64,000 nucleotides of DNA from an uncultured Rickettsiales bacterium (GTDB lineage: Bacteria > Pseudomonadota > Alphaproteobacteria > Rickettsiales > JABDBP01), in contig CAYVHI010000002.1 in NCBI GenBank assembly GCA_964450945.1, positions 904-64,903 of the forward strand. The letters run 5' to 3'. Of this stretch, positions 34,835 through 60,642 are shown in pieces. The notes beneath the pieces were generated by a model that was given only the letters and a program-made list of their open reading frames with translations, had not been told where the DNA came from and made no database searches. Numbering within the stretch: the first letter of the stretch is position 1; each line of letters starts with the position of its first letter. A program made the translations under genes and the position numbers.

Positions 34835-34898
34835 AATTTACTGCGCTTCCGGGGTTCACGTACCTTGCATGTACGCTCCACTCCGGTTCTCGTAAATT
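34835..34898. repeat. Hairpin repeat family copy E (divergent)
   Basis: AATTTAC...GTAAATT 7-bp termini enclose TGCGCTTCCGGGGTTCACGTAC-cttgcat-GTACGCTCCACTCCGGTTCTC. Shares the CACGTAC/GTACGCT core with copies D and F. Confidence 0.55.
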
Positions 34899-34923
34899 TA
34901 CAATTTCCAGCTCAGCCTAGCGA

Positions 34924-36072
34924 ATGTTGAAACAACTTAAAAAAAATAATTTTATGGGTTACGCAGAATTCCTTTCGCCAATTGAAGATATCATTGCTGA
35001 TGCAAAAGCCGGCAAGATGTTCATTCTTGTCGATGATGAGGATCGGGAAAATGAAGGCGATATAATTATTCCTGCTGAGAAGATAAGTGTTGATGCCGTG
35101 AATTTCATGGTGAAGCATGCCAGAGGATTGGTGTGCCTTGCCATAACAAAACAAAGATCAAACGAGCTGGCCTTAAAGCTTATGCCTAGAAGCAATGTCT
35201 CACGCCATTCAACAGCATTCACTGTTTCCATTGAGGCAAAGGAAGGTGTTACAACCGGTATCTCTTCCGCTGACAGGACACAGACAATTAAAGTCGCGAT
35301 AGACCCTAAAAAAGGCGCAAGCGATATATGCACACCAGGCCACGTGTTTCCACTGGTTGCCCGTGATGGCGGTGTTCTGGTGCGTGCAGGCCATACAGAG
35401 GCAGCGGTTGATATAGCAAGACTTGCCGGCCTTAACCCATCTGGCGTTATATGTGAGATAATGAATGATGATGGCACAATGGCACGCATGCCTGAACTTA
35501 CCCAATTTGCTAAACAGCATGATTTAAAGATTGCAACCATTGCTGACCTTATCGCTTACCGCAGGAAGAACGATAAACTGGTGCGCCGTGAACTGGAGAC
35601 AAAATTCAAGACTGAATTCGGCGGTGAGTTCAATATGTATGTTTACCTGAACACAGTTGAATATGCGGAGCACATTGTGCTGGTGAAAGGCAAACTGAAT
35701 ACAAAAGAACCTGTTTGGGTGCGTATGCACTCACTTGATCTGCTTACCGACCTGCTTGGTGATACCACCACCGGAAAGGCAGGTGAACTGCATAAGGCCA
35801 TGAAGATGATAGATAAGAACGGCAGCGGTGTAATCGTCCTTATCAGGGAGCCAAGAAAATCTGCTCTTTCTGATGTTGTGAAGAAGCGTTACCTGGAGCA
35901 GGAAAAAGAGCAGAAAGGCCAGAAAAACCTGAGGGATTATGGTATAGGCGCACAAATTCTTCTCGACCTTGGCGTTAAAGAGATGATACTTCTTACTAAT
36001 TCATCTAAACATTCAATTATCGGCCTTGAAGGTTATGGACTGACAATTGTTGGCGAAAAAGCGATAAAGTAA
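34924..36072 (+). CDS. ribB: 3,4-dihydroxy-2-butanone-4-phosphate synthase fused to a degenerate GTP-cyclohydrolase-II-like domain (RibBX type)
   Basis: The N-terminal half has DRENEGD and a DHBP synthase pattern. The C-terminal half aligns to RibA, but VHSECLTGD...RCDCG reads MHSLDLLTD...TTTGKAG, so the Zn-binding Cys residues are absent. An alternative start exists at 34954. Confidence 0.88.
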   Translation: MLKQLKKNNFMGYAEFLSPIEDIIADAKAGKMFILVDDEDRENEGDIIIPAEKISVDAVNFMVKHARGLVCLAITKQRSNELALKLMPRSNVSRHSTAFTVSIEAKEGVTTGISSADRTQTIKVAIDPKKGASDICTPGHVFPLVARDGGVLVRAGHTEAAVDIARLAGLNPSGVICEIMNDDGTMARMPELTQFAKQHDLKIATIADLIAYRRKNDKLVRRELETKFKTEFGGEFNMYVYLNTVEYAEHIVLVKGKLNTKEPVWVRMHSLDLLTDLLGDTTTGKAGELHKAMKMIDKNGSGVIVLIREPRKSALSDVVKKRYLEQEKEQKGQKNLRDYGIGAQILLDLGVKEMILLTNSSKHSIIGLEGYGLTIVGEKAIK

Positions 36073-36075
36073 TTT

Positions 36076-36498
36076 ATGAAGATACTTATTATAGATGCGC
36101 GCTACTATGAAAAAATTGCGGAGGAAATGCTGCAAGGTGCAGTAGAAGTGTTAGAGAAAGCAAAAGTAAAATATGATGTTGTTACGGTGCCGGGAGCATT
36201 TGAAGTTCCAGCTGCCATATCTTTTGCGCTCAAAAAAAATAAGTATGATGGCTATATTGCACTCGGTTGTGTTATACGCGGTGAAACCTCGCACTATGAT
36301 TATGTTTGTCAGGAAAGCGCAAGAGGGATAAATGATCTTGCCATGAAAAAACATGCAGCGATTGGATATGGAATATTAACGGTTGAGAATGAAGCGCAAG
36401 CATGGGATAGAGCCAAGCGTAGAAAACAGAACAAGGGCGGATTTGCTGCAAAAGCCTGCCTTGATATGATAAACCTTAAAAAGAAACTAAAGGCATGA
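36076..36498 (+). CDS. ribH: 6,7-dimethyl-8-ribityllumazine synthase
   Basis: 140 aa. VPGAFEVP and GCVIRGETSHYDYV motifs. Confidence 0.92.
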   Translation: MKILIIDARYYEKIAEEMLQGAVEVLEKAKVKYDVVTVPGAFEVPAAISFALKKNKYDGYIALGCVIRGETSHYDYVCQESARGINDLAMKKHAAIGYGILTVENEAQAWDRAKRRKQNKGGFAAKACLDMINLKKKLKA

Positions 36499-36935
36499 AG
36501 AATAATACGCGCACAAACGCCAGAACTCTTGCCATCCAGGCTTTATATGACCAGGAAATAAATGGCTCTGCAACCACCCCTGAAGAGCTGGTTACTGATA
36601 TATTAAAATTTTCGGGTAACAACAATGCCGACAAAAAATTCTTAAAAACCCTGATAGAGGGCGCACTGGAAAACTCAAAAAGCTTTGATGAAATAATCAG
36701 CAAATATCTTTCAGGTGGGTGGAACATTGAGAAACTTAACCCACTAATGCGTGTTATACTGCGTGTTGCAACATATGAGCTACAGGCGCTTGCCAATGTT
36801 CCGCCAAAAGTTGTTATAAAGGAATATATGGAACTGACTAAAAAATTTGTTGGTGAAAAGGAAGTGAGATTCACCAACGGCGTTCTAGATAAAATTGCAA
36901 AAGAGCTCCGGCCGCAAGCATTTGCAAATGGATGA
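36495..36935 (+). CDS. nusB: Transcription antitermination factor NusB
   Basis: 146 aa. ARTLAIQALYD at the N-terminus, and the conserved ribH-nusB-thiL order. Confidence 0.9.
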   Translation: MKNNTRTNARTLAIQALYDQEINGSATTPEELVTDILKFSGNNNADKKFLKTLIEGALENSKSFDEIISKYLSGGWNIEKLNPLMRVILRVATYELQALANVPPKVVIKEYMELTKKFVGEKEVRFTNGVLDKIAKELRPQAFANG

Positions 36936-37914
36936 ATTCTCTTTCATAGAAAGACACTTGGCGCCGCTTGCTGCAAAGGAAAAAGGCGCACTTGACCTAA
37001 AAGATGATGCAGCAGTAATTGCCCCAAAAAAAGGAAATGAGTTTGTAATAACCAAAGATGCAATCACTGAAGGTGTTCATTTTTTTTCCGGCGATACACC
37101 AGAAAACATTGCAAGAAAACTATTGGGAGTCAATCTTTCTGACATGGCAGCAATGGGCGCAAAGCCACGTTGTTACCTGATTGCAGGCGTGCTTACAAAA
37201 GCAATAAAAGAACTATGGCTTAAGCGCTTCAACCAGACTTTGGCAGAAATACAGAAGCAATATGGCATCACCATGATTGGTGGTGACACCAGCGTTCAAG
37301 AAAAGATACTTACATTCTCACTGACTATGATCGGTGAAGTTAGAAAGGGAAAATTCTTAAGAAGGAAAGGTGCAAAACCAGGCGATATAATTTTCGTTTC
37401 CGGAACAATAGGTGATTCAGCTCTAGGGCTTCAGATACTAAAAAATAAAATAAATAAAGTTTCAGCAGAGAATAAAAAATTCCTTGTTTCAAGATATCAT
37501 GTTCCAAGCCCACGGGTAAAACTAGGGCAAGAATTGATTGGAGTTGCAAACGCTGCCATCGATATTTCTGATGGGCTGATTGCAGACCTTGGGCATATAT
37601 GTGAATGCTCAGGTGTTAGTGCTGATGTTTTTCTCTCCCAGATACCGCTTTCAAAAGCAGGAAAAGATCTGATAAAGAAAAACCCATCATTCTATAAATA
37701 TGTACTTTCAGGCGGAGATGATTATGAACTTTGTTTCACTGCGCCGGAGAGGTCAATTTCTAAAATTCTTCGTCTTGCAAAGAAGCTAAGAACCCCCATA
37801 ACTCCTATAGGTGTTGTAAAAAAAACAACCGCCGGTGATAGGGTAAGAATATTAGATAATTACCGCAAAGTTATACCGCAACAAGCTGCCGGATATAACC
37901 ACTTCCATAAATAA
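36928..37914 (+). CDS. thiL: Thiamine-monophosphate kinase
   Basis: Start placed at MDEFSFIERHLAPL, overlapping the nusB stop. AIR-synthase-like fold with DISDGL and GGDDYEL motifs. Confidence 0.88.
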   Translation: MDEFSFIERHLAPLAAKEKGALDLKDDAAVIAPKKGNEFVITKDAITEGVHFFSGDTPENIARKLLGVNLSDMAAMGAKPRCYLIAGVLTKAIKELWLKRFNQTLAEIQKQYGITMIGGDTSVQEKILTFSLTMIGEVRKGKFLRRKGAKPGDIIFVSGTIGDSALGLQILKNKINKVSAENKKFLVSRYHVPSPRVKLGQELIGVANAAIDISDGLIADLGHICECSGVSADVFLSQIPLSKAGKDLIKKNPSFYKYVLSGGDDYELCFTAPERSISKILRLAKKLRTPITPIGVVKKTTAGDRVRILDNYRKVIPQQAAGYNHFHK

Positions 37915-37945
37915 AATTAATATATAACAATATCTTAAGCTGGAA

Positions 37946-37984
37946 GTTTCCTAAATTGATAAAATTTTAGGAAAATTGTTTCCT
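37946..37984. promoter_or_regulatory. Inverted repeat TTTCCTAAA-N10-TTTAGGAAA plus a third GTTTCCT half-site upstream of lipoprotein array
   Basis: 37947-37955 and 37966-37974 are exact reverse complements. GTTTCCT is at 37946-37952 and again at 37978-37984. Confidence 0.35.
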
Positions 37985-38053
37985 GTTAATAAAATCTTAA
38001 TATTTGGGGGTTATATATATGATATAATTAAGTAAGTGGAATTAAGGAAAATT

Positions 38054-38395
38054 ATGGAAAAAAAGCTTATAAAAATATTGACTTTGGCGTTTGCCTTTAT
38101 GCTGGTTGGATGTAGCAATGACCCAAGATCTGCTTTTATTCCGTTTTCAGCTATTGGCCAGACATTTAGTCCAAAGCCGATGTACATGAGAGGGTTACCA
38201 GAAGGGGATGATAGTTACTCAGTAGGTTTCAGAGATGGGTGCGATACTTATCTTGGCATACAGGGGGTTGGTTTGATGCAGTTCAAAACATTTAAACAGG
38301 ATACATTGCGTACGATAAATGATCAGTATTATGCACAAGGTTATGAAGACGGAAGGAACCATTGCACATATATAATGCACCCTGCGGTAAACTAG
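38054..38395 (+). CDS. Small lipoprotein, paralog 1 of 5 (most divergent)
   Basis: Start at MEKKLIK with AAGGA SD. Lipobox LVGC. GFRDGCDT ... YYAQGYEDGRNHC. Confidence 0.7.
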   Translation: MEKKLIKILTLAFAFMLVGCSNDPRSAFIPFSAIGQTFSPKPMYMRGLPEGDDSYSVGFRDGCDTYLGIQGVGLMQFKTFKQDTLRTINDQYYAQGYEDGRNHCTYIMHPAVN

Positions 38396-38401
38396 GTATT
38401 T

Positions 38402-38743
38402 ATGGATAAAACTATGAAAAAAGTAATTACCATATTAAGTATAATTATCATGTCGCTCGGTTTTTCTGCGTGCAGCAGGGATAAGCTTGACCTCGCGCAC
38501 GGAGCCAATTTTAATGTTGATCCCCCACCTGGCCCGCCTGAGTATCAGAAAGGATGGAAAGATGGCTGTGAAACAGGCAGGGCAGCATATGCAAACCATT
38601 TTTATAAAATGTTCCTTGATTTCAGGCAGGATGAAGAATTAGCCCAGAACCCTATATATTATCAGGTATGGAAAGATGCTTACCTATATTGCTGGTTCCA
38701 AACGGAAACTGGATATAACCATGGTTGGGGCAACTTTAGGTAA
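38402..38743 (+). CDS. Small lipoprotein, paralog 2 of 5
   Basis: Lipobox FSAC. PPEYQKGWKDGCETG ... FRQDEELAQNPIYYQVWKDAYLYC. Confidence 0.72.
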   Translation: MDKTMKKVITILSIIIMSLGFSACSRDKLDLAHGANFNVDPPPGPPEYQKGWKDGCETGRAAYANHFYKMFLDFRQDEELAQNPIYYQVWKDAYLYCWFQTETGYNHGWGNFR

Positions 38744-38769
38744 ATTATGCTGAAAACTCTTTTTATTGG

Positions 38770-38862
38770 TAAATACTTTGTCGTTAACATTCTCGAATCC
38801 TCATGTACGTTATTGTACACTGCGGTTCTGCGAGTTTTAACTCCTAGTATTTTCCTAATAAG
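38770..38862. repeat. Hairpin repeat family copy F
   Basis: ..TTTGTCGTTAACATTCTCGAATCCTCATGTAC-gttatt-GTACACTGCGGTTCTGCGAG..ACTCCTAGTA. Lies between paralogs 2 and 3, inside the 5' extension of track ORF 38747. Confidence 0.6.
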
Positions 38863-38893
38863 AAGAGTTTTCAGCTATAATTTACTACTTACA

Positions 38894-39193
38894 ATGATTG
38901 CTGTTTTGCTCCTTTCCGCCTGCACCAGAGCGGGTGCGCCGTGGCAGGCATGGATGTATGAAGGGCCGCCAAAACAGGAAGGAGTTGAGTATCCGCCGCT
39001 TTATGTAGAGGGCTGGAAACATGGTTGTGAGACGGGTGTTGCCTCTACAACCAACCACTATTACAAATTTTTTTATGACTGGCGGCAAGATGCGCAGCTG
39101 GCACAAAATAAAGTTTACTACCAAGGTTGGCGGGATGCTTTCGACTATTGCAACCGCTATATGTTCCAATATTTGGCAAAACCTTTCTTTTAA
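38894..39193 (+). CDS. Small lipoprotein, paralog 3 of 5
   Basis: Start placed at MIAVLLLSAC (lipobox LSAC). YVEGWKHGCETG ... WRQDAQLAQNKVYYQGWRDAFDYC. The ORF stays open upstream to 38747 through the repeat, so the start is uncertain. Confidence 0.65.
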   Translation: MIAVLLLSACTRAGAPWQAWMYEGPPKQEGVEYPPLYVEGWKHGCETGVASTTNHYYKFFYDWRQDAQLAQNKVYYQGWRDAFDYCNRYMFQYLAKPFF

Positions 39194-39201
39194 GAGGATA
39201 T

Positions 39202-39678
39202 ATGAAAAACATAATTATAATATTTAGTTTGTTCATACTAGTAGCCTGTAACACTACAAAAGGTGGCACAGAAAGAACATTTGCCTTCCAGCCGATAACG
39301 TTGCCAAAATTACCGCAAGGCTCGCCTGAATATACACAAGGGTGGAGAGATGGTTGTGAAACCGGTATGTCCGTTTATGGTGACCCGACCTATAAAACAA
39401 TTTATAAATGGAAGCGTGACGAGGATCTTGCTGCATCAAACGTTACTTACTATAAAGCCTGGAAAGATTCATACAATGCTTGCCGCCACTACCTGCAAAG
39501 CTGGTCTTTAAATACCCAGCCAAGCAGCCCGTTCACGCCAATGGATAATCCATCTACTGATCCGCTTTTTGAATCAAAGGATATGAAAAGTGATTTCCTT
39601 GGAATACCAAACGGCGAGAATGCTTTTTCCGGCAGCGGTGACATTTTTTCACCAGAAGGAAACATAATGGGGTTCTAG
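39202..39678 (+). CDS. Small lipoprotein, paralog 4 of 5 (extended Ser/Pro-rich C-terminus)
   Basis: Start at MKNIIIIF with AAGAGGA SD. Lipobox LVAC. SPEYTQGWRDGCETG ... WKRDEDLAASNVTYYKAWKDSYNAC. Confidence 0.72.
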   Translation: MKNIIIIFSLFILVACNTTKGGTERTFAFQPITLPKLPQGSPEYTQGWRDGCETGMSVYGDPTYKTIYKWKRDEDLAASNVTYYKAWKDSYNACRHYLQSWSLNTQPSSPFTPMDNPSTDPLFESKDMKSDFLGIPNGENAFSGSGDIFSPEGNIMGF

Positions 39679-40092
39679 ATGAAAAGAATATTCATCAGTA
39701 TAGCAATTGTTCTTCTCCTTGCTTCATGCAAGCAATCAGGATTTCCGCCTATGTTCAGCCATGGACCGAAGGAAGGGGATGGCCCGCCGGAAATGGTACA
39801 GGGCTGGCAGGATGGCTGCCAGAGCGGTACACAGGCTTACGGCTGGGATATATATAAAACATTCTATCCTTTCAAGCAGGATGCAAGGCTTGTAAGCAAC
39901 AGGCTTTATATGACCTACTGGCGTGATGCTTATAATTATTGCCGCCATTACTTAAACGAATATGGCCGTTACGGTGTGCTTGGCCTTGAGCTTTTTGCGC
40001 AACCGACCGGTGATGGTAACATCCGTGATGAAAGAACTGCTACTGTGGGTAAGGGTGATAATGGTATTATGCCAGGCTTCATGGGTTGGTAG
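39679..40092 (+). CDS. Small lipoprotein, paralog 5 of 5
   Basis: Lipobox LASC. PPEMVQGWQDGCQSG ... FKQDARLVSNRLYMTYWRDAYNYC. The start abuts the stop of paralog 4. Confidence 0.72.
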   Translation: MKRIFISIAIVLLLASCKQSGFPPMFSHGPKEGDGPPEMVQGWQDGCQSGTQAYGWDIYKTFYPFKQDARLVSNRLYMTYWRDAYNYCRHYLNEYGRYGVLGLELFAQPTGDGNIRDERTATVGKGDNGIMPGFMGW

Positions 40093-40114
40093 TATAAACG
40101 ATTATAATTAATTA

Positions 40115-40204
40115 GTTATTACGTCGTCGTACTTCGAACTCAAACTCAGTCATATATGTTTTAGATATACTCCTTCGTTTTCGTCTTGTACTCCTAGTAA
40201 TAAT
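40115..40204. repeat. Hairpin repeat family copy A
   Basis: GTTATTACGTCGTCGTACTTCGAACTC...CATATATGT-tttag-ATATACTCC...TGTACTCCTAGTAATAA. The first 26 nt are near-identical to copy B. Confidence 0.7.
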
Positions 40205-40220
40205 TTAACTATAATCAGTT

Positions 40221-40982
40221 ATGTTAGAAATTATTGAATTTCTCTTGGCAATAGGAATCGGTTTGGGCAGTGGTAGTTACGCCACTATGCCTTATTACCG
40301 GCTTCCCAATAATGAGCCATGCGGTGGCAAATGGACAGGGAAACGTTCCCATTGCACATCCTGTGGGCATAAGCTGCGTACACGCGATCTTTTGCCTGTT
40401 TTTAACTGGCTGCTTACTCATGGGAAATGCCAATTCTGTGGTAAAAAAATAAGTCCGGTTTACTTTTTTATAGAACTTTCCTGCACCATATTATCAGTGC
40501 TGATTTACCTAAAATTTGGCTTCAGCGACAAGTATATGCTTTTTATGATACTGGCGGTTTGTCTGGTTATTCTTTCAGCCACTGACTATAGCTATAAAAC
40601 CCTACCAGATGCTGTATTCATAGTTATTGTTATGGTGGGCATGACTTACCGCGCCATAGAGGATTCTGAATTGTTCGGGATGACTTATGGCTTTACCCTG
40701 GCACTCCTTACCTGCCTTTTCTACCGGCAGATTTATGAAAAAATAACCGGCAAAAAGATAAAGAATTATGGCTACCTTAAACTTATCACGGTTTCAGGAA
40801 TATGGCTTACCCCTGGAAATTTTGTGGCATTTATAATTGTTGCTGCTTTATTCATGGGGATGCTAAGGCTTGTTTATGGTAAGAAAAGAGCCCGTTTTGC
40901 AATGCCAATAGCTGCTTCCCTGCTGCTATTTATATTTTATCCAAATCTGCATCTTGCCGTTATTTCAGCAATACCCTCATAA
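40221..40982 (+). CDS. A24-family prepilin peptidase-like membrane protein, second catalytic Asp motif degenerate
   Basis: 253 aa. N-terminal CxxC...CxxC (CTSCGHKL...CQFCGKKISPVY). The first Asp motif ATDYSYKTLPD is present. The expected G-x-G-D-(F/V)-K-L reads NYGYLKL. Confidence 0.7.
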   Translation: MLEIIEFLLAIGIGLGSGSYATMPYYRLPNNEPCGGKWTGKRSHCTSCGHKLRTRDLLPVFNWLLTHGKCQFCGKKISPVYFFIELSCTILSVLIYLKFGFSDKYMLFMILAVCLVILSATDYSYKTLPDAVFIVIVMVGMTYRAIEDSELFGMTYGFTLALLTCLFYRQIYEKITGKKIKNYGYLKLITVSGIWLTPGNFVAFIIVAALFMGMLRLVYGKKRARFAMPIAASLLLFIFYPNLHLAVISAIPS

Positions 40983-41055
40983 ATATAAAGAAAACCTCTT
41001 GCCTATAGCCTTATTTTAGGCAATAAAGTAGACCCTTACCTTTAAGGATTCTTAT

Positions 41056-41131: not shown

Positions 41132-41181
41132 CTTTCAGCATCACTTTAATATTGAATATAAGCCATTTTTCTGACAAAAAT

Positions 41182-41202
41182 TAACGATTTTCTAACGATT
41201 TT
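41182..41202. repeat. Tandem direct repeat TAACGATTTT x2
   Basis: 41182-41191 and 41193-41202, about 50 nt downstream of the tRNA. Confidence 0.5.
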
Positions 41203-42229: not shown

Positions 42230-42267
42230 ATATCTTTAAAGTTAGAAGTTTATGATAATATATAAAG

Positions 42268-49143: not shown

Positions 49144-49164
49144 GCTTTATTAATTCTCATGCAT

Positions 49165-49196
49165 AAAAAACCCCAGTTTTTACTGGGGTTTTTTAT
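49165..49196. terminator. Bidirectional rho-independent terminator
   Basis: AAAAAACCCCAG-ttttta-CTGGGGTTTTTT between convergent genes. Confidence 0.85.
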
Positions 49197-50395: not shown

Positions 50396-52804
50396 ATGAT
50401 GACAAAAACTAATGATGCGAAAAGGGATGGAGTCAGGGTTGATATAAATATTTCTGATTTCATCCCTTTTGCATGTCATTATAACCCTCACACAATACTC
50501 ACAAAGAACGGCGAATTACTACAGACTATAAAAATAGTTGGATTCGCTGCCGAAAATATAAGCAATAAAAAAGAAGATAATAAAAAACGGACCTTAAGAG
50601 GCTCGGTAAGGAAAGCTATTCAGACAGGCATTGATAATGATGAATATGCTATATGGTTTCATACCGTAAGAAGGAAAAAGAAACTTTCTGCCGAAGGCGA
50701 ATACAGCGACCAGTTCTCAAAATATACCAATAGTGCCTGGCGCAAAAGGCATGACTGGGATCATAAATATGTTAACGAGCTTTATATAACTATAATAAGG
50801 GAAGGAGAGTCATTTTCTTTCGAAAGTTATGCCGACTATATAAAAACTTCATCTTATAAGGTGCAAAAAAAGGCAAAGAACCTCTTTCTTGAAAAGATAT
50901 ACGATGAACTTGATGAGGTTGTAAAAAAAGTAGTTCAGTCACTTTCAGATTTTGGTGCAAAACGTCTTTCCATGTTTGAATATAAAGGAGTTTTTTATTC
51001 AGAAAACTTAAGGTTTCTAAGTAAAATCATCAACTTTGCTGAATATAATTTTCCGGTTAAGGAGCAGGATTTATCTCACTATCTTCCTATAAACAAAGTT
51101 TCTTTTGGTTTTAATGCCCTGGAAGTAAAAGGTGCCAATGAAAAACATTTTGCTGGTATATTATCAGTAAAGGAATACCACGAAGTATCGGCAAATGCCA
51201 TAGACACATTCTTGCAGTTGCCGTTTGAATTTATCCTGACAGAAACAGTGGATTTCATTAACAGGGAAAAGGCCTTAAAAGGATTTGAGTATCAAAAGTA
51301 TATTTTAAATCTAAGCCAGGATAAGCATTTTTCTGAAATATCTGGGATAACTGAAATAATAAATAGCGATAAAGGAAGAGTTACGGATTTTGGTGAGCAC
51401 CAGATAAGTATAATGGTTATTGAAGACCATTTGAAATTACTGGAATCAGAAATCAATAAAATGCAGGAAGTTTTAGCCACGTTAGGTATACTTTCGGTAA
51501 GGGAAGATATTATGATGGAAGATTGTTTCTGGGCACAGCTTCCGGGCAACTTCTCATTCATAAGGAGGCTGACACCTATAAATACCAACAGGATGGGTGG
51601 CTTTGCCTCACTTTATAATTTTCCTGCCGGTAAACTTACCAACAACCACTGGGGTCCGGCAGTCACAATTTTTTATACCGCAGCCGGAACGCCTTATTTC
51701 TTCAATTTCCATGTAGATGATAATGGGCATACGGCGATAATCGGACCATTCGGCGCCGGAAAAACGGTGCTAATGAATTTCATGCTCTCAGAAGCAAGAA
51801 AATATAATAGCAAGCTTTTCTTTTTTGACCAGATGCGTGCTTCGGAAATTTTTATCCGCGCTATTGGCGGCAAATATGTTTCTTTTGAAGAAACTAAAAA
51901 TAAGTATTTGCCAATTCCAAAAATGAATCCTCTGTTGCTTGCTGAGAATGAGGAAAATATAAAATTCCTGAAAGCCTGGCTGCAATATCTTGTTTCCAGC
52001 TCTGATAACGGGAATGAAGATGAAACAATAAAAGAAAGGCTGGTGGAAATTGTTAAAATAATATTTGCTCTACCCGCACAGGAGAGGAAACTTTCACAAG
52101 TCAGGGACCTTTTTGAAAAGATGGATATGGCAAAACAGGCGGCGGCTCTTGAGGTCTGGTATGGTTCCGGCAGATATTCATACCTGTTTGATAATGATGA
52201 TGACGACTTGAATATTGCCCATATCCAGGGTTTTGATATGACGTTTTTGGTAAAGGAAGGAAAGCCTCTTGGCCCTGTGCTATCTTATTTATTCCATAGA
52301 ATAAGGGAAAAGCTGGATGGTGAACCAACAATAATAGTACTGGATGAAGCATGGTCACTTATTGATAATGCAATCTTTGCCCCGCACATTTCCGAGTGGC
52401 TTGATTTTTTCCGGGAAAGAAATGCTATGGTTATTTTTGCAACAGAAAGCGTTGAAGATGCAAGTAAAAGCAAAATCACAACTTCAATAACCAGCAAGCT
52501 GGCAACAAGGATATTCCTACCCAATCAGTATGCCACTGGCGCTTATAAAAAGGTTTTCGGCCTTAACCATGTAGAATTTGATCTCCTTAACATGATGAGT
52601 AAGAAGCGCCGCAGCTTCCTCTTAAAGCATGGTGAGGATGCCGTGGTTGCCGAACTTGATCTTAGCGGACTTGATGAAATAATATCTATATTGTCTGGTA
52701 CGCCGGAAAACATTAAGATAATGGAAGGGATTATGAATGAAGTTGGTGAAACCGTTGATAAATGGTTACCTGCCTTTATATTCAAGAAAAAAGCAAAAAA
52801 ATGA
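50396..52804 (+). CDS. virB4: T4SS ATPase VirB4
   Basis: 802 aa. N-terminal SDFIPFACHYNPHTILTKNGELLQT, Walker A GPFGAGKT, Walker B IIVLDEAW. Confidence 0.93.
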   Translation: MMTKTNDAKRDGVRVDINISDFIPFACHYNPHTILTKNGELLQTIKIVGFAAENISNKKEDNKKRTLRGSVRKAIQTGIDNDEYAIWFHTVRRKKKLSAEGEYSDQFSKYTNSAWRKRHDWDHKYVNELYITIIREGESFSFESYADYIKTSSYKVQKKAKNLFLEKIYDELDEVVKKVVQSLSDFGAKRLSMFEYKGVFYSENLRFLSKIINFAEYNFPVKEQDLSHYLPINKVSFGFNALEVKGANEKHFAGILSVKEYHEVSANAIDTFLQLPFEFILTETVDFINREKALKGFEYQKYILNLSQDKHFSEISGITEIINSDKGRVTDFGEHQISIMVIEDHLKLLESEINKMQEVLATLGILSVREDIMMEDCFWAQLPGNFSFIRRLTPINTNRMGGFASLYNFPAGKLTNNHWGPAVTIFYTAAGTPYFFNFHVDDNGHTAIIGPFGAGKTVLMNFMLSEARKYNSKLFFFDQMRASEIFIRAIGGKYVSFEETKNKYLPIPKMNPLLLAENEENIKFLKAWLQYLVSSSDNGNEDETIKERLVEIVKIIFALPAQERKLSQVRDLFEKMDMAKQAAALEVWYGSGRYSYLFDNDDDDLNIAHIQGFDMTFLVKEGKPLGPVLSYLFHRIREKLDGEPTIIVLDEAWSLIDNAIFAPHISEWLDFFRERNAMVIFATESVEDASKSKITTSITSKLATRIFLPNQYATGAYKKVFGLNHVEFDLLNMMSKKRRSFLLKHGEDAVVAELDLSGLDEIISILSGTPENIKIMEGIMNEVGETVDKWLPAFIFKKKAKK

Positions 52805-54324
52805 AAAACCGCAGCGTAAAATTACTTATTCTTTTTCTGGCACTTGCCTGCCCTGCGATAGTTTATGCTGCCTGCACGTTCCCTATTTCACTTAATGACT
52901 GTGCTTTTAGTTTTGTTGACCCGGCAACAGGGGAAACAAAATACCAGATCTTGTTTTCAATACTCTGCCGTGTTCAGTATGCCCTTGGTGGCGCTGTTTT
53001 CCAGATGTATCAGGCGATAGAAACCAGGGTTGCCACGCCGGTCAAGGTTTTCGGTACGCTATATATCATATTTTTTTCCGGTGCTTATTTAATGGGACTT
53101 ATTAAGCAGGAAGCAAAGCTGAGCCAATTCGTAATACACATTGTGAAGCTGACCCTGGTTATGATGTTTGCCACCAACCACTGCTTCTTCTTTGATTATA
53201 TTTACACATTGTTCATGGGCGGCATGAATGCTATAGCCCTTATGGCCTTCAGCGGGCTTCCAGGTACACCGCCTGTACTGGGTGCCGGTTCAAGCCCTGC
53301 GGAAATAATCGCCAGGAGCCAGATAATAGGAAATATTGACGTTGCCTTTAATAGCATTATCAGCATACAGAGCATATTCGCCATTATCGTGCTGATTATT
53401 TTCTTCCTTTTAAGCCCCGGCGGCATAATAATTTCTGTCCTACTTTCAGCCGGCACCATTTATATATTCTATGCCTTTGTGAAGCTGTTCATAACTTTTG
53501 CCATCGCCATCATCAGCCTTACATTTGCGATGATTTTCACCCCGGTTTTCATGATATTTGTTCTATTCGAGCAGACGAGGGATCTTTTCTACAACTGGCT
53601 TTCCCTGCTTTTCACTTATGCCATGCAGCCGATAATCATCCTTTTCTACCTTGTTCTCATGGGCCAGATAATGGATATAAGTTTCATACTTAAGGGGCTT
53701 ACCTGCCCAAGCGCCGCAGACGCTGCTGCTACGGATGCCTGCCTGGCAGCCTTCAGGGCGGATGCCTGTGTTGGCACGCCGGTAGTTCCTGACCCTAACG
53801 CCATAATAGTGCCTTACTGCTGGAAAGTGCTTCCGACATTCATTACATTCTTCCAATGGTCATTCTTTCAAATCAAGCCGGGGATGACCTTTGATACACC
53901 GGTTACTTTCGTTATACCAGGCAACCCGCCACAGAATGTGAACATGCCGGCTTTCGCCGCTATTACCGCGCTTTGTTTCTGCTGGCTGGTGGCCGCATTC
54001 ACCGCCATAGAATTCTGCAAGATAGTGCCTGAACTGGCGCAGCGCCTTGGTACTACGCAGGCCCTTCTGAAACCACCAGGTATTGGCAATATCAGTCCAG
54101 GTGTTAATCCAAAAACTGGTGAGTTTGATAGACTTTCTATCGAAGGTGGTAACGTTATTGTTCCGGGATTTACTGCTGGGTATGCCTCAACAACAAGCGT
54201 CAATCAGTGGCGGGATGCACTTTTAAGTAAATTGGGTGGCGCGTGGCCAAAAATTATAAAAGCAACGGATAGTGGTGCGGCCCGCAAAGGAGTAAGCGAC
54301 ATGATGGACAAGCTGAAGAAATAA
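52801..54324 (+). CDS. virB6: T4SS inner-membrane protein VirB6/TrbL family
   Basis: Start at MKNRSVK (ATGA overlap with the virB4 stop). Signal-like N-terminus and multiple TMs with a central Trp-containing region. The position after virB4 matches Rickettsiales rvh loci. Confidence 0.8.
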   Translation: MKNRSVKLLILFLALACPAIVYAACTFPISLNDCAFSFVDPATGETKYQILFSILCRVQYALGGAVFQMYQAIETRVATPVKVFGTLYIIFFSGAYLMGLIKQEAKLSQFVIHIVKLTLVMMFATNHCFFFDYIYTLFMGGMNAIALMAFSGLPGTPPVLGAGSSPAEIIARSQIIGNIDVAFNSIISIQSIFAIIVLIIFFLLSPGGIIISVLLSAGTIYIFYAFVKLFITFAIAIISLTFAMIFTPVFMIFVLFEQTRDLFYNWLSLLFTYAMQPIIILFYLVLMGQIMDISFILKGLTCPSAADAAATDACLAAFRADACVGTPVVPDPNAIIVPYCWKVLPTFITFFQWSFFQIKPGMTFDTPVTFVIPGNPPQNVNMPAFAAITALCFCWLVAAFTAIEFCKIVPELAQRLGTTQALLKPPGIGNISPGVNPKTGEFDRLSIEGGNVIVPGFTAGYASTTSVNQWRDALLSKLGGAWPKIIKATDSGAARKGVSDMMDKLKK

Positions 54325-54434
54325 AAACCCTTCCCACCTGTTTTAATCATTATATTTCAATATATTACCCGTATATAATTCATTCCTGAAAAATGCTATA
54401 ATTGATATGGTTTTCCATGGTTTGTGTATTTAAT

Positions 54435-54451
54435 AAGGCGTAAGCCTTTTT
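54435..54451 (+). terminator. Weak hairpin plus T-run after virB6
   Basis: AAGGC-gtaa-GCCTT followed by TTT. The stem is only 5 bp. Confidence 0.3.
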
Positions 54452-54472
54452 GAAATATAGTTCCTGGTAAGC

Positions 54473-54512
54473 GTGGCCTATTTTAAAGTGCAGACGTTCT
54501 GCACTTGGCCAC
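54473..54512. other. Two-tier hairpin at the low-GC/high-GC transition
   Basis: Outer GTGGCC/GGCCAC (6 bp) and inner AGTGCAGA-cgt-TCTGCACT (8 bp perfect). Confidence 0.5.
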
Positions 54513-54649
54513 TTAAATCTCCATCCGCTTTCGCCCTTCCTAAGGTTACTACGCGTAACATACCTTGGGAAAAAAAGCAGATGGTATAAATGTGCGGCCT
54601 GGAGCGGTTCCAGGCTATCCGCGTCCCGATTCCTCGAGAGGACTTAAAG

Positions 54650-55207
54650 ATGTCTCTCTTTGGTGACGATGAGGCACGAGAAAGAGATCAGCAAAAAGCT
54701 GATGCTGAACGAGAGCGGCAAAGGAAGAAAGGTGAAGATGAGGAAGCTGCTTGGAACGACCGCGAGAAGCGGGCATCGTCAGGCGGTGGCAGTAGCGACG
54801 GTGGTGAGAGGCCAACGCGAGGTGATGGTAACGGCGGTGGTTGCGTTACTACTGTTCTTGCAATCATTCTGGCGCTGTTCCTCATCGGTCTGGTGACTCA
54901 GAGGATGCAGCAGCCGCCCGACAACCCCAACGCCGTGTACAAAACGGCGGAGGAGGTGAAGGCAGGGTACCTGCTCTTCACCGGCGGGACGGTTATCCCG
55001 CTGAAGGACACGAAAAAACTCCGCGAAGATGGTCTGAACATCATCTTTGAGGTGACCACGGAACACGGAAAGTTCCGGGTAGTGTTCGAGAACAAGTACC
55101 GGAATGGCTTCCGGGTGGACAGGATGAGATTTGAACCACCTGACGGTACCTACGACAACACCAACACTTGGTGGGTCGAGAACGACCCGAGGATCCCGAG
55201 GAAGTGA
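54650..55207 (+). CDS. Compositionally foreign bitopic membrane protein (charged Gly-rich N-terminus, one TM, ~100-aa C-terminal domain)
   Basis: Start at MSLFGDDE with GAGAGGA SD; the track ORF starts at 54590. TM is VTTVLAIILALFLIGLVT. Codons in the second half are mostly G/C-ending (CTG, AAC, GAC, ACC, TTC, AAG), unlike all neighbours. Confidence 0.6.
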   Translation: MSLFGDDEARERDQQKADAERERQRKKGEDEEAAWNDREKRASSGGGSSDGGERPTRGDGNGGGCVTTVLAIILALFLIGLVTQRMQQPPDNPNAVYKTAEEVKAGYLLFTGGTVIPLKDTKKLREDGLNIIFEVTTEHGKFRVVFENKYRNGFRVDRMRFEPPDGTYDNTNTWWVENDPRIPRK

Positions 55208-55233
55208 AACTCCTCTGGGGCACATGACAAAAA

Positions 55234-55285
55234 ACAACACCCTCTTTTCGCGTAAGAGAGGGTGTTGTGCTTTCTAGCTTTTTTT
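55234..55285 (+). terminator. Rho-independent terminator after the high-GC gene
   Basis: ACAACACCCTCT-tttcgcgtaag-AGAGGGTGTTGT 12-bp perfect stem, then GCTTTCTAGCTTTTTTT. Confidence 0.75.
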
Positions 55286-55395
55286 AATCTGCTTCCTACT
55301 TCGTCGTACTTTAGGTTTCGGTGTGCTCATGTATCTTTAATACACTCCGCGCACCTTGCCTAGTACTCCTCGTATTAAGCAGATTAAAAAAAGCT
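55276..55395. repeat. Hairpin repeat family copy C with 19-bp perfect terminal inverted repeats
   Basis: AGCTTTTTTTAATCTGCTT (55276-55294) is the exact reverse complement of AAGCAGATTAAAAAAAGCT (55377-55395). The core TACTTCGTCGTACTTT..GTGTGCTCATGTAT-ctttaa-TACACTCCGCGC..CCTAGTACTCC matches copies A and B. Confidence 0.75.
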
Positions 55396-55411
55396 ATATC
55401 CTGCTTTTATA

Positions 55412-55505
55412 TCCGGGTCGCTCTGCGCTAAAGCGCAACCGCTCCCACGTAATAGTTTATTATTTTCCGGGTCGCTCTGAACTTCGTTCAACCGCTCCCG
55501 CGTAA
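55412..55505. repeat. Two tandem ~40-nt hairpin units with conserved flanks and covarying central stems
   Basis: Unit 1 (55412-55452): TCCGGGTCGCTC-TGCGCTaaAGCGCA-ACCGCTCCCACGTAA. Unit 2 (55466-55505): TCCGGGTCGCTC-TGAACttcGTTCA-ACCGCTCCCGCGTAA. Confidence 0.7.
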
Positions 55506-55506
55506 C

Positions 55507-56793: not shown

Positions 56794-56796
56794 CTT

Positions 56797-57840
56797 ATGA
56801 TTGACTATAAAATGCTAATATCTTTTAATAAAAACATGCATACACCAGTTCTAAGATTTGTCATAGCAGCTTTATTGTTAAGTTTAATTTTTCTTGCCGG
56901 CGGAACTTCAGCCACAGAAACAAAAAGTTTTGACAAATGGCTTGAGCAGTTTCGCGCTGATGCCGAAAAAGAAGGGATATCAAAACAAACCCTGGATGCC
57001 GCCTTGAAAGGCCTTAAACCATTGCCTGCAGTTGTAAAACTGGATAGGAAACAGCCGGAAACCATAAAAACATTTGTGCAGTACCATAAAGGCGTGGTTA
57101 CTGATGAAAAAGTCCAGAAGGGCAGGGCGAACATTAAAAGAAATGCTGAAATCCTTGCAGAGATTACAGAGAAATATAATGTGCCGGTACGTTTTATCGT
57201 GGCTCTGTGGGGTGTTGAAACACATTATGGAAAAATAACAGGGAGTTTTTCTGTTGTTAATGCTCTGGCAACCCTTGCTTATGATGGAAGGCGCAGTGAT
57301 TTTTTCCGCAAGGAACTGATAAATGCACTTAAGATCATTGATAAAAAACATGTGACTGTACAACAGATGAAAGGATCATGGGCTGGTGCTATGGGGCAAA
57401 CCCAATTCATGCCTTCAAGTTACCTTACTTACGCGGTTGATTATAACAATGATGGCAAAACAGATATTTGGAATTCACCGCCGGATATTTTTGCATCAAT
57501 AGCCAATTACCTTAATAAATCAGGCTGGAAGGTTGATGAAGGCTGGGGTATGAAGGTGAAAATCCCTGAATATCTTGACCAGAGCTTGGTTGATATAAAA
57601 ATTCAGAAAAGCTTAAAGGAATGGCGGCAAATCGGCGTAAAATATGCGGATGGCAAGGAGCTGCCAGGTAATAATATAAAGTTTTCACTTATCAATTTGG
57701 AAGCTGATAAAAAAATTAAAGGCGGAAATCAATATTATTTGATTTCAGATAATTTCAGAACCTTGCTAAAATGGAACCGTTCATTATACTTTGCAACAGT
57801 TGTTGGGTTGTTATCTGATAAATTAATGAATGTACCATGA
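56797..57840 (+). CDS. Lytic murein transglycosylase (MltB/family 3-like)
   Basis: 347 aa. Signal peptide, LWGVETHYG catalytic Glu motif, QFMPSSY. An alternative start at 56836 (MHTPVLRF) is plausible because the divergent gene starts 3 nt away. Confidence 0.8.
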   Translation: MIDYKMLISFNKNMHTPVLRFVIAALLLSLIFLAGGTSATETKSFDKWLEQFRADAEKEGISKQTLDAALKGLKPLPAVVKLDRKQPETIKTFVQYHKGVVTDEKVQKGRANIKRNAEILAEITEKYNVPVRFIVALWGVETHYGKITGSFSVVNALATLAYDGRRSDFFRKELINALKIIDKKHVTVQQMKGSWAGAMGQTQFMPSSYLTYAVDYNNDGKTDIWNSPPDIFASIANYLNKSGWKVDEGWGMKVKIPEYLDQSLVDIKIQKSLKEWRQIGVKYADGKELPGNNIKFSLINLEADKKIKGGNQYYLISDNFRTLLKWNRSLYFATVVGLLSDKLMNVP

Positions 57841-58691
57841 ATCATATTTCAACAGGGCCTAGATTATTTTTACTATGCGTTGTTTCTCTCATGCTTTCGG
57901 GATGCGGCTATTTTGTGAGCTTTTCTCCCGGCAGGATGATTGGGCCTGAAGATAATGAAAAATACTATAAAGTTGGAAAGTCATATAAAATAGAAGATAA
58001 GTGGTATCATCCAAAAGAAGATTTCCATTATAATGAAGTAGGAATTGCTTCGTGGTATGGCCCGGATTTTCACGGCGGCGATACCGCAAACGGCGAAGTA
58101 TTTAATAAATATGCACTGACTGCTGCGCACAAAACACTTCCCATGCCAAGCATGGTAAAGGTTACTAATCTTGAGAATGGCAACTGGGTTAAAGTTAGAG
58201 TTAATGATCGCGGCCCATTTGTCGGTAACAGGATAATAGATGTTTCTAAAGCGGCAGCAGAAAAACTAGGTTTTGTTGATAAGGGAACTGCAAAAGTAAG
58301 GGTGCAGCTACTGAAGGAAGAAACCGAAAAACTTTTTCCTGCCACTAGCTCTATAAGAACAAAGATAGCAACATCCCAGCCATTACCAAAGCAAACAACG
58401 TCGCCGCAAAAAAAATATCTGAAGACAGGCAAAACTATAGAGGCACACCGGCCTCATGAAGGAGAAAAAATATATATACAGGTTGGTGCCTATACTGCTC
58501 ACAGTAAGGCGCAAAACTATGCAAGGAAACTTGGCGAGCTTGGTAAAACAGATGTGGCGCAGGCTTATATTAACGGAGCAAATTATTATAGGGTAAGGCT
58601 TGGCCCAATACAAAGCAGTAAAACAGCAGATAAACTTTTATACAAGGTGGCAAATCATGGTTTTCCGGAAGCATATATCGTTCTTGATTAG
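57837..58691 (+). CDS. rlpA: Septal ring lytic transglycosylase RlpA (DPBB + SPOR domains)
   Basis: 284 aa. Lipobox LSGC, GIASWYGPDFHGGDTANGE, NDRGPF, and a C-terminal SPOR-like YIQVGAY...YRVRLGP. Confidence 0.88.
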   Translation: MNHISTGPRLFLLCVVSLMLSGCGYFVSFSPGRMIGPEDNEKYYKVGKSYKIEDKWYHPKEDFHYNEVGIASWYGPDFHGGDTANGEVFNKYALTAAHKTLPMPSMVKVTNLENGNWVKVRVNDRGPFVGNRIIDVSKAAAEKLGFVDKGTAKVRVQLLKEETEKLFPATSSIRTKIATSQPLPKQTTSPQKKYLKTGKTIEAHRPHEGEKIYIQVGAYTAHSKAQNYARKLGELGKTDVAQAYINGANYYRVRLGPIQSSKTADKLLYKVANHGFPEAYIVLD

Positions 58692-58713
58692 AAAAAATCA
58701 CTCTCATTGGCTA

Positions 58714-58795
58714 TTGATGCGTCGCACCCGTCCTCAAGTCCTCACGTACATTTTAAAGTACGCTGCGGCTTTGCGGTCGGTTGCTCCTATCACTA
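58714..58795. repeat. Hairpin repeat family copy D (divergent), inside the 5' end of the carboxypeptidase ORF
   Basis: TGATGCGTCGCACCCGTCCTCAAGTCCTCACGTAC-attttaaa-GTACGCTGCGGCTTTGCGGTCGGTTGCTCCTATCA. Shares the CGTCG, CTCACGTAC/GTACGCTGCGG and CTCCTA blocks. Confidence 0.55.
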
Positions 58796-59901
58796 GCCTA
58801 ATGATAATGATTTTTGTTTTTCCAAATATTGTTTTTGCCCAGACCTTTGAAACCAAGGCTGGCTACGCCATACTTATCGATGATAAAACTGGAGCGGTAC
58901 TTTTTGAAAAAGACGCTGATGTAAGCATGGCGCCTTCTTCGATGAGCAAACTGATGACCATATATATACTTTTTGACCGGCTGAAATCAGGGGAAGTAAA
59001 GCTTACAGATAAATTCAATGTAAGTGAAAAGGCCTGGCGTACCGGTGGTTCAAAAATGTTTGTAAAGGTAGATTCGGAGATATTAGTTGAAGATTTAATA
59101 CGGGGAATAATAATTCAATCTGGTAATGACGCATGTGTTGTTGTGGCAGAAGGTTTGGCTGGAGCTGAAGAAGTTTTTGCCCAAAAGATGAATATGATGG
59201 CAGAAAAGCTTGGGCTAAAAAACAGCCATTTCAAAAATTCTACTGGCCTTCCGGAAGATGGACATGAAATGTCGGTGCGAGACTTGGCGATACTGGCAAA
59301 GCACCTTATCGATGACTTCCCTGAATATTATCATTATTTTGCAGAAAAAGAATTTGTATATAACAAGATAAACCAGCCTAACAGGAATCTTCTCCTTTAC
59401 AGGAATATTAATGCAGATGGCCTGAAGACGGGGCATGCGGAAAAGGCTGGTTACGGGATTGTTGCTTCCGCCGCGCGCGATGGTAGAAGGCTTATTGCGG
59501 TAGTTAACGGCCTTAAAGGTGAAAAAGAACGTGCCGATGAAGCTCAGAAACTTCTTGAATACGGTTTTGGTGCATTTGAAGTGGTAACGCTTTTTAAGGC
59601 GGGTGAAGCTGTAGAAGAAGCAGAAGTATGGTTCGGAAAAAAGAATGCAGTGCCGCTTGTAACGAAAGAGGATATAACATTTACCCTTCCGCGCTATAGT
59701 AAGGGCGACCTTGGTGTTTCAGTTTTATATAATAGCCCAATAGCGGCACCAATTGGAACAGAGACATCAATAGCTGAACTCTTAATAAAGAGAAAAGATG
59801 CTGAAGATGTTAAAATACCATTATTCGCCGGTGAGAAGATTGAAAAGATATCATTCTTCAAACACCTGATAAGATCACTAAAATACCATATAAAAAACTA
59901 A
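58717..59901 (+). CDS. D-alanyl-D-alanine carboxypeptidase (PBP5/6 class)
   Basis: SMSK (SxxK), SGN and KTG motifs. Start chosen at MRRTRPQ (58717), giving a signal peptide ending VFAQ. Alternative starts at 58801 and 58807. The track start at 58600 overlaps rlpA. Confidence 0.85.
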   Translation: MRRTRPQVLTYILKYAAALRSVAPITSLMIMIFVFPNIVFAQTFETKAGYAILIDDKTGAVLFEKDADVSMAPSSMSKLMTIYILFDRLKSGEVKLTDKFNVSEKAWRTGGSKMFVKVDSEILVEDLIRGIIIQSGNDACVVVAEGLAGAEEVFAQKMNMMAEKLGLKNSHFKNSTGLPEDGHEMSVRDLAILAKHLIDDFPEYYHYFAEKEFVYNKINQPNRNLLLYRNINADGLKTGHAEKAGYGIVASAARDGRRLIAVVNGLKGEKERADEAQKLLEYGFGAFEVVTLFKAGEAVEEAEVWFGKKNAVPLVTKEDITFTLPRYSKGDLGVSVLYNSPIAAPIGTETSIAELLIKRKDAEDVKIPLFAGEKIEKISFFKHLIRSLKYHIKN

Positions 59902-60548
59902 TGGCTGGAAAATTCATATCACTTGAAGGTGGGGAGGGAACTGGTAAATCAACCCAGCTGAAACTTCTTGCAAAAAGCATTGAAAGGGTTGGTATGAGGG
60001 TTATAGAAACGCGTGAGCCTGGAGGAACGGAACAGGCAGAAAGAATACGCTCCATATTAGTTACAGGAAATTCAAGTAAGCTTAATCCCTTTACCGAACT
60101 TCTTCTCCATAATGCTGCCCGCAAAGAACATGTTGAAAATGTAATCAAGCCCGGGCTTGCTGAAGGAAAGATAGTTATTTCTGATCGCTTTGCCGATTCT
60201 ACCGTTGCATACCAGGCATACGGCCATGAGCTTGGCACTGCCATTGTGAAATCCATAACCCAGCTTACCATAGGAAATTTTACTCCAGACCTCACAATAA
60301 TACTGGATATTAAGCCGGAAGAGGGTTTGAAGAGGGCCGGCAGCCGGGCTGGCAGCGAAACCCGGTATGAACAGATGGAAAAAGCATTCCATGAACGGGT
60401 CAGAGAGGGATTTTTAGCTATTGCAAAGCAAGAGCCAGAGCGGTGTGTGGTTATATCATCCGATAAGTCTGTTGAAGCGGTGCATAAAAGCATTATTTCT
60501 GTTGTAAATTCTCATCTTTCCCTTAATTTAAAGATTAGCGATTTCTGA
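59901..60548 (+). CDS. tmk: Thymidylate kinase
   Basis: 215 aa. EGGEGTGKST P-loop and DRF motif. Confidence 0.93.
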   Translation: MAGKFISLEGGEGTGKSTQLKLLAKSIERVGMRVIETREPGGTEQAERIRSILVTGNSSKLNPFTELLLHNAARKEHVENVIKPGLAEGKIVISDRFADSTVAYQAYGHELGTAIVKSITQLTIGNFTPDLTIILDIKPEEGLKRAGSRAGSETRYEQMEKAFHERVREGFLAIAKQEPERCVVISSDKSVEAVHKSIISVVNSHLSLNLKISDF

Positions 60549-60551
60549 TTT

Positions 60552-60642
60552 GGTTATTACGTCGTCGTATTTCGGACTCGCTGTGCTCATGTATGTCAGG
60601 ATACACTGCGCCCAGCTCACCTCATACTCCCTAGTACTAACC
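60552..60642. repeat. Hairpin repeat family copy B
   Basis: GGTTATTACGTCGTCGTATTTCGGACTCGCTGTGCTCATGTAT-gtcagg-ATACACTGCGCCCAGCTC..ACTCCCTAGTACTAACC. Lies between tmk and holB. Confidence 0.7.

Follow-up and report, generated by a model that had tools for sequence, protein, structure and literature searches.

The six intergenic repeats described here lie in a 64,000-nt stretch of DNA (hereafter the window; contig CAYVHI010000002.1, positions 904 to 64,903) from an uncultured alphaproteobacterium that is not a Rickettsia. The host has about 40% G+C, and its MetG shares at most 68% identity with any other database protein. All six repeats are intergenic, each filling its gap, and all lie in the same (+) orientation, sense to the surrounding genes. 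They are most probably diverged copies of a palindromic mobile element of the type known as RPE-1 (Rickettsia palindromic element 1, reportedly from Ogata et al. in 2000). The original prediction, made from the sequence alone, had located six copies of an imperfect-hairpin repeat at these sites and at gene boundaries, and both statements held. The copies, under the letters given to them then, are listed below in the order of the window; the genes beside copy E were named via Pfam.

Copy E, 34806-34934 (approximate), + strand: junction of ribE (riboflavin synthase) and ribBA; a shortened, degenerate element.
Copy F, 38739-38886, + strand: within an array of small paralogous open reading frames (ORFs); a full-length 148-nt element of the RPE-1 type.
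Copy A, 40100-40216, + strand: after the small-ORF array and upstream of a prepilin peptidase gene; AT-rich.
Copy C, 55275-55396, + strand: spacer between convergent genes, directly past a classic terminator; a complete element.
Copy D, 58691-58822 (approximate), + strand: occupies the rlpA-dacC junction; of the RPE-1 type.
Copy B, 60538-60656, + strand: occupies the tmk-holB junction.

Some of the copies overlap the ends of the adjoining genes. The stop codon of tmk (60546-60548) lies within the 5′ arm of B, that of the ORF upstream of F (38741-38743) within the first bases of F, and a candidate dacC start codon within the 3′ arm of D. The array that surrounds F and precedes A (38036-40092) consists of four or five small paralogous ORFs with a common 36-nt motif (GGCTGGAAACATGGTTGTGAGAC-like), and no Pfam match was obtained for any of them.

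A profile built from the six copies matched only those six in the 64 kb, and leave-one-out nhmmer searches regained B, C, F, D and A, with E-values ranging from 3.5e-11 (B) to 6e-4 (A). Independent evidence came from a covariance model of 39 copies from other genomes, which contained no window sequence and with which the window was scanned with filters off. Its top six window matches were exactly the six sites, full-length and on the + strand, with E-values of 6.6e-28 for F, 1.1e-24 for D, 2e-11 for C, 4.1e-10 for B, 5.6e-5 for A and 0.016 for E, the last match spanning 34810-34926; the next-best match in the window had an E-value of 0.32. An nhmmer model of foreign copies likewise recovered D (7.9e-17) and F (1.4e-15) over model positions 10-135 of 146. 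No further copies were detectable in the first 34 kb of the window or in the 9.3 kb past its end. The detectable copies in the window number exactly six, so of the "at least six" proposed earlier the six stand and the open upper end does not. The predicted likeness of A and B at their 5′ ends was also borne out (27 of 30 positions identical).

That this similarity is a chance likeness of AT-rich intergenic hairpins is scarcely credible. The weakness of A and E, the latter missed by leave-one-out searching, would be in keeping with chance; against it, E-values from the independent model reach 1e-28, the six sites are the sole matches, and the same layout recurs in more than 119 foreign loci. 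The background check called for by the original prediction also spoke against chance, with 0 matches expected from shuffles for a strict motif pattern that matches four of the copies. For F, D, C and B, chance resemblance is already ruled out.

Each of the six stretches folds into one long imperfect hairpin of 117-148 nt and 37-62 pairs, longer than the ~65-120 bp first proposed. The layout is common to all copies and comprises an outer stem, an internal loop, a middle stem and an apical hairpin. The outer stem is specific to the subfamily or lineage and acts as a terminal inverted repeat. The internal loop is asymmetric, with CGTCG on its 5′ side and CTCCT on its 3′ side, and the middle stem, of about 16 nt, varies freely in sequence while complementarity is kept. 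The apical hairpin consists of CTCAYGTAY, a 4-9 nt loop and RTACR-C-TSCGG, in which the bulged C is constant. F forms 62 pairs (dG -61), B 39 and A 37. C folds with a dG of -50.5 (z -11.2), and its perfect terminal inverted repeat, put at 19 bp in the original prediction, measures 20 bp (TAGCTTTTTTTAATCTGCTT, 20 consecutive terminal pairs); those of F (~30 bp) and of B and A (~17-20 bp, imperfect) are also recognizable. E folds as a single long hairpin with the apical hairpin TCACGTAC..GTACGCTC. The CGTCG motif is present in the 5′ loop of A, B, C and D, reads TGTCG in F and is lost in E, and CCTC or GCTC stands just before the apical stem in B, C, D and F. The apical stem alternates between CATGTAT/ATACA-C-TG and CACGTAC/GTACG-C-TG with the bulged C unchanged, and in A it has changed compensatorily to CATATAT..ATATAC.

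A conserved, covarying hairpin, as predicted from the stem with the bulged C, is confirmed. Among the six window copies, 75.5% of the model pairs are formed, where shuffles reach 58.9% and slid partners no more than 42%, and 26 of 41 pairs have changed on both sides, figures that are biased toward the model because the alignment was fitted to it. In 39 diverse foreign copies, 77.6% of the cells are paired (shuffles 61.3%, slid partners 32-46%), and changes on both sides number 285, against 117 in shuffles. The consensus structure used here was derived from column pairs over 63 gap-free copies and then tested on these 39; with RNAalifold and a MAFFT alignment of 128 copies, only the apical hairpin emerged, because the arms were misaligned. 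The two strands of the element are not equivalent. Folding favours the complement of the strand that carries CGTCG in 101 of 115 copies, by a mean of 6.2 kcal/mol (116 tested), and it is this better-folding strand that is translated where copies are inserted in frame in genes.

Copies in other genomes identify the family. The commonest foreign class is 146 nt long and runs from TAGACC to GGTCTA. For 24 of the 29 foreign copies located within long ORFs, it is the complement strand that the ORF reads. The interrupted ORFs are genuine housekeeping genes: pattern copies of Rickettsia and Tisiphia stand in frame in glyS (glycyl-tRNA synthetase beta), priA, an Hsp70 gene (twice) and genes for a PD-(D/E)XK nuclease and an LD-carboxypeptidase, and an enolase gene also has an ORF-internal copy. 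Four of the five Rickettsia/Tisiphia insert peptides tested match the NCBIfam model TIGR01045 ("palindromic element RPE1 domain", cutoff 30 bits) with 56-83 bits and E-values of 1e-15 to 1e-23; the exception, from one of the two Hsp70 insertions, reaches 22.3 bits. Every database protein that the peptide matched carries the name of an RPE1-domain protein, in R. conorii, R. rickettsii, R. honei, Tisiphia and others. Because the in-frame Rickettsia/Tisiphia copies encode TIGR01045 peptides, the family is RPE-1, an identity that is based on this protein model and on NCBI names rather than on a published consensus; the sequence strings of the element were not found in the literature searched. RPEs are described as 105-146 bp long, with an R. 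conorii example of 146 bp that carries TA at either end and for which the target duplication is given as unknown (PMC2229807), and the foreign element agrees with it in its length of 146 nt and its T..A termini.

Judged by alignment, D and F are direct nucleotide homologues of RPE-1, and the RPE-like resemblance noted in the original prediction is thereby sharpened to homology, with covariance-model E-values of 1e-24 to 1e-28. F is identical to the Rickettsia RPE-1 consensus at 97 of 146 positions, and D shares 76% identity over 83 nt with a copy from a Rickettsia endosymbiont. C, B, A and E match the RPE-1 model solely through the core and the layout (E-values 2e-11 to 0.016), and for these only membership at the level of a subfamily or superfamily can be proposed. 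The window holds at least two subfamilies, with D and F close to classical RPE-1 and A, B and C forming a separate group; E is probably a shortened relic. The arms of A, B and C read TTATTACGTCGTCGTA...ACTCCTAGTA, and the same subfamily occurs on two unrelated metagenome contigs. The outer arms of E (TTCTACTATGCTGG / CAGCCTAGCGAAT) resemble those of RPE-1 (CTCTACTTCTGCTGG / CAGCATAAGCGAGT). In the RPE1 reading frame, the conceptual translations of all six window copies contain stop codons; the conceptual peptide of F reaches 13.6 bits against TIGR01045 (E-value 0.049), below the cutoff, and that of D has no match to this model. Such decay is typical of intergenic RPEs, and it weakens a description of the copies as coding-competent RPE-1, not their homology. 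Overall, the window elements share with RPE-1 their size (117-148 nt here, about 146 there), the single long imperfect hairpin with terminal inverted repeats, T..A ends and core, and insertion into tight junctions without gene disruption. They differ in that the host is not a Rickettsia, in that the window copies are intergenic and stop-bearing, and in the other arms of A, B and C.

Comparison with related genomes bears on how the copies reached their junctions. Three relatives (MetG 65-68% identical) share the gene order slt-rlpA-dacC-tmk-holB-metG; in these, rlpA and dacC overlap or lie 7 nt apart, and tmk and holB overlap or lie 4 nt apart, except in one relative with an additional ORF between tmk and holB. 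No copy of the family was found in 35 kb of sequence from the relatives. Since the genes overlap or abut at the corresponding junctions, B and D are insertions into these tight sites. The same comparison tells against the idea, raised in the original prediction, that several copies stand where a terminator would be expected. As Rho-independent terminators or attenuators at gene ends, the copies would have in their favour that the hairpins lie past stop codons and that C and A come after the final gene of a block. However, there is no T tract behind any copy and no terminator-scan match overlaps one, textbook terminators exist elsewhere in the window (49163-49196 and 55229-55266), and three copies occupy operon junctions upstream of essential genes, with B, D and E preceding holB-metG, dacC-tmk and ribBA in operons that run uninterrupted in the relatives. 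We consider such a role extremely improbable. The terminator at 55229-55266 lies upstream of C and is separate from the element. The one at 49163-49196, between convergent ORFs, is a perfect bidirectional intrinsic terminator (AAAAAACCCCAGT...ACTGGGGTTTTTT), to which weak Rfam matches to BSnc120, the rimP leader and PsrR1 are due.

Another explanation is that selection maintains the copies as RNA structures acting in cis within operon transcripts, for example as processing sites for RNase III or RNase E, as stabilisers of the mRNA or as occluders of translation, and that their mobile origin is secondary. The sense orientation of all six with respect to neighbouring genes would suit this, as would the intra-operon positions at ribE/ribBA, rlpA/dacC and tmk/holB, the candidate dacC start in the 3′ arm of D and the compensatory changes that keep the hairpin. 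Yet the family as a whole shows no preference for one orientation relative to co-directional genes (23 versus 25 in intergenic contexts), and the operon sense strand is the weaker-folding one in five of the six window copies (E, A, C, D and B). The relatives have the same operons, with overlapping genes and without the element. The element is, moreover, tolerated as an in-frame insertion within proteins, as well as in an rRNA spacer and an enlarged T-box leader. The comparison with Rfam suggested in the original prediction gave no family match: none was obtained at the gathering score or at E-values up to 10 for any window copy, and none at the elements of 18 foreign loci. A primary role as RNA structures is therefore unlikely in our estimate. 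A strand-specific RNA function deduced from orientation was rejected family-wide on the 23 versus 25 count.

A scan with the core pattern, covering one genome per species and with groups assigned by record title, returned at least 119 loci. Among the matches listed are Rickettsiales (Rickettsia, Tisiphia, Sarmatiella, Jidaibacter and others), other Proteobacteria (Holosporales, other Alphaproteobacteria, Legionella, Mycoavidus, Gallionella and Burkholderiales), Bdellovibrionaceae, Polyangiaceae, Desulfohalobiaceae, Nitrospirota, Nitrospinota and Acidobacteriota, as well as Listeria cornellensis, Bacillus, Paenibacillus, Alloiococcus, Thermotogae and Planctomycetota. Features outside the search pattern, namely the upstream CGTC/GTCG tag and the long hairpin, are present in most matches of every group, and the layout is also preserved in copies that depart from the exact pattern. 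Conceptual translations from Legionella feeleii and from Legionella, Bdellovibrionaceae and Holosporales metagenome-assembled genomes (MAGs) pass the RPE1 cutoff with 32-43 bits, and these copies are identical to the Rickettsia consensus at 106-112 of 146 positions. The copy of an L. gratiana isolate is identical at 113 of 146, yet its translation scores 27.8 bits, below the cutoff. By these nucleotide and protein-model comparisons, RPE-1 proper is not confined to Rickettsiaceae, and the restriction to Rickettsia seems to reflect a historical limit of sampling.

Several of these loci are of interest in themselves. A Holosporales MAG contig (L039) has seven element matches in 8 kb, with near-identical copies at many sites, and in another Holosporales MAG (L055, 1620-3905), a single 761-aa ORF without a Pfam match reads through three copies. 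Both of these genomes seem to be overrun by the element, and recent multiplication is evident in some genomes. Bacillus sp. SCS-153A (L083, 2405-2642) has two copies in direct tandem with a 122-bp period, 1.7 kb from an IS256-type transposase gene. A copy of Alloiococcus sp. CFN-8 (L053, 4718-4833) lies in a 16S-23S spacer. In Listeria cornellensis (L017, 7610-7990), a T-box leader measuring 381 nt, against 219 in the model, contains a family-like hairpin on its opposite strand.

RPE-1 may be one branch of a pan-bacterial superfamily of 115-150 nt hairpins that is read, on one folded strand, by one conserved protein moving or maintaining the elements. We advance this tentatively, as a possibility that is open to considerable doubt. 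The superfamily would extend over Alpha-, Beta- and Gammaproteobacteria, Bdellovibrionota, Myxococcota, Desulfobacterota, Nitrospirota, Nitrospinota, Acidobacteriota, Bacillota, Thermotogota and Planctomycetota. The near-invariant core, CGTCG...CTCAYGTAY-loop-RTACR(C)TSCGG...CTCCT, combined with covarying stems, is what would argue for a single conserved protein.

Hairpins with a conserved 5′ tag are also the substrates of known systems, including repetitive extragenic palindromes (REPs) or REPINs with their RAYT transposases, the ends of IS200/IS605 insertion sequences and integron attC sites. An assignment of the copies to one of these would draw on the conserved tetranucleotide 5′ of the hairpin (here CGTC / CCTC), the extrahelical base, the absence of a target duplication and the strand asymmetry. 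It would also accord with Di Nocera et al. (PMC3733652), who placed RPEs in a CGTC-tagged REP superfamily. The details do not fit. The six copies have no GTAG head, the window has no Y1 transposase, and the size (117-148 nt) and layout are unlike REPs of 20-40 nt. The element does not flank the only IS200 beside a copy (L114), which is bounded by ends of its own. R''/R' boxes of the AAC..GTT type were not seen on reading the six copies, for which no dedicated scan was made, and the tools gave no integron context. According to the literature, CGTC repeats lack a dedicated transposase (PMC3733652). It is thus highly improbable that the copies are substrates of one of these systems.

The CGTC-tagged REP superfamily of Di Nocera, De Gregorio and Rocco (2013) includes RPE-4/RPE-6 and Neisseria dRS3; RPEs there end in CGTC, and short CGTC-tagged REPs are grouped from five phyla, with no dedicated transposase known (PMC3733652). 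The present elements share with them an unpaired CGTC(G) 5′ of the hairpin, CCTC ahead of the apical stem, stems beginning with A-T / T-A, intragenic as well as intergenic copies and a distribution centred on Alphaproteobacteria with outliers in other phyla. CGTC-tagged REPs, in contrast, are units of 20-40 nt with stems of 8-9 bp, loops of 4-5 nt and a CCA tail, often in head-to-head dimers, whereas the hairpin here measures 117-148 nt and has a 6-bp apical stem with a bulged C, a 4-9 nt loop, a CTCCT partner and a GCG/CCG tail. [quoted passage not shown] Target duplications, of TA or other sequence, are found in these families, and for RUP an insertion sequence is a plausible parent, whereas neither a target duplication nor a parent was found here, and it is the centre and not the ends that is most conserved. 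The label "MITE-like" of the original prediction is accordingly apt for the terminal inverted repeats and the small, non-coding nature of the copies, not for target-site duplication. The CcrM-associated intergenic repeats of Caulobacter (CIR), reportedly from Chen and Shapiro in 2003, could be compared by description. They are also alphaproteobacterial and intergenic, about 110 nt long, and GANTC sites occur in the core of RPE-1-type elements (F has CGAATCC, B has GACTC); GANTC is, however, unconserved in A, C, D and E, and CIR RNAs are described as two stem-loops with a linker, in contrast to one end-to-end hairpin here.

Possible vehicles and partners of the element were also searched for. 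Plasmids gave no blastn match to the element, and viral contigs only five pattern matches, with no evident vector. IS256-type and IS200 genes near a few copies are incidental and have their own ends. Near-identical IS200-type elements (Y1_Tnp, 152 aa, with their own hairpin ends) were observed in Rickettsia endosymbionts at L114 5941-6487, L060 1694-2239 and L080 4690-5235, the first about 100 bp from an RPE-1 copy and not flanked by the element. Filled and empty pairs were sought among the foreign loci, and the syntenic pairs found concerned another RPE family or gene termini. One such pair is a 138-nt insertion at L049 3366-3503 relative to the syntenic L082 7143-7155, from another Rickettsia endosymbiont; the insertion consists of short CGTC-type REPs (ATTCCCGCGAAAGCGGGAATCCA) and represents a different RPE family.

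On balance, we regard the six repeats as, probably, old and diverged copies that stem from an RPE-1-type mobile element, palindromic and non-autonomous, and that are now passively inherited. Several observations weigh against this. No flanking direct repeat indicating a target-site duplication was found at 63 full-length foreign copies or at the window copies, and the element ends show only a constant T...A, with the adjoining base covarying. A half-element search in 8-kb genome pieces gave no ORF flanked by element halves that could be an autonomous partner. All-versus-all clustering of 1687 ORFs from 119 loci gave no recurrent neighbour gene, the sole recurrent cluster being the RPE peptide itself, and the window has no homologue of a Y1 (tblastn) or IS256 transposase. 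Without a target duplication, partner, neighbour gene or transposase, transposition is therefore something that we infer and do not show. In addition, the single orientation of all window copies is not predicted for neutral random insertion (two-sided p ~0.03), and the better folding of the complement strand has no explanation in the model. The window copies share only about 59% identity in aligned columns and give no sign of recent activity there, and the conservation of the core is partly built in, as loci were gathered by the core pattern.

In this RPE-1-type element a single strand folds into one long hairpin, and the copies came in by insertion into tight junctions between genes, in some cases providing the last codons and the stop of the upstream gene. 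The present copies would be inherited passively and transcribed within operon mRNAs. In the mechanism that we propose, insertion would leave no target duplication, and spread would depend on a factor acting in trans, for which the shape of the folded strand and a few constant nucleotides, and not the element ends alone, would be the recognition signal. Such a factor alone would readily account for the combination of a fixed centre with freely covarying stems over about ten phyla.

Copy C also bears on the assembly of this region. Logan contig L001, an independent assembly of the same strain, starts at window position 55420, directly past C, and repeat C appears to break short-read assemblies. 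Upstream of it, at 50396-55207, lie two large TrbL/VirB6-like ORFs followed by a 205-aa ORF without a Pfam match. Tandem VirB6 paralogues are characteristic of type IV secretion systems of the Rickettsiales type. The G+C content is raised around the VirB6-like ORFs, to 48.7% at 54-56 kb.

For the window itself the gain is modest: six odd intergenic spacers are explained, gene ends are corrected (the tmk stop codon and possibly the dacC start), and assembly break points are marked. To our knowledge, RPEs have been treated as a peculiarity of Rickettsia, and their mode of spread has not been found in 25 years, because their hosts are obligate intracellular bacteria without obvious transposases. 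The nucleotide model and the RPE1 protein model both place the same element in Legionella, Holosporales and a Bdellovibrionaceae MAG, and relatives that share its core occur in cultivable Bacillota and many environmental phyla, which opens comparative and experimental routes to the RPE mechanism. Annotators should expect "RPE1 domain" peptides and inflated intergenic spacers far outside Rickettsiaceae. If the pan-bacterial superfamily is real, cultivable bacteria such as Bacillus sp. SCS-153A, Listeria cornellensis, Legionella feeleii, L. gratiana, Paenibacillus and Alloiococcus would make RPE movement testable.

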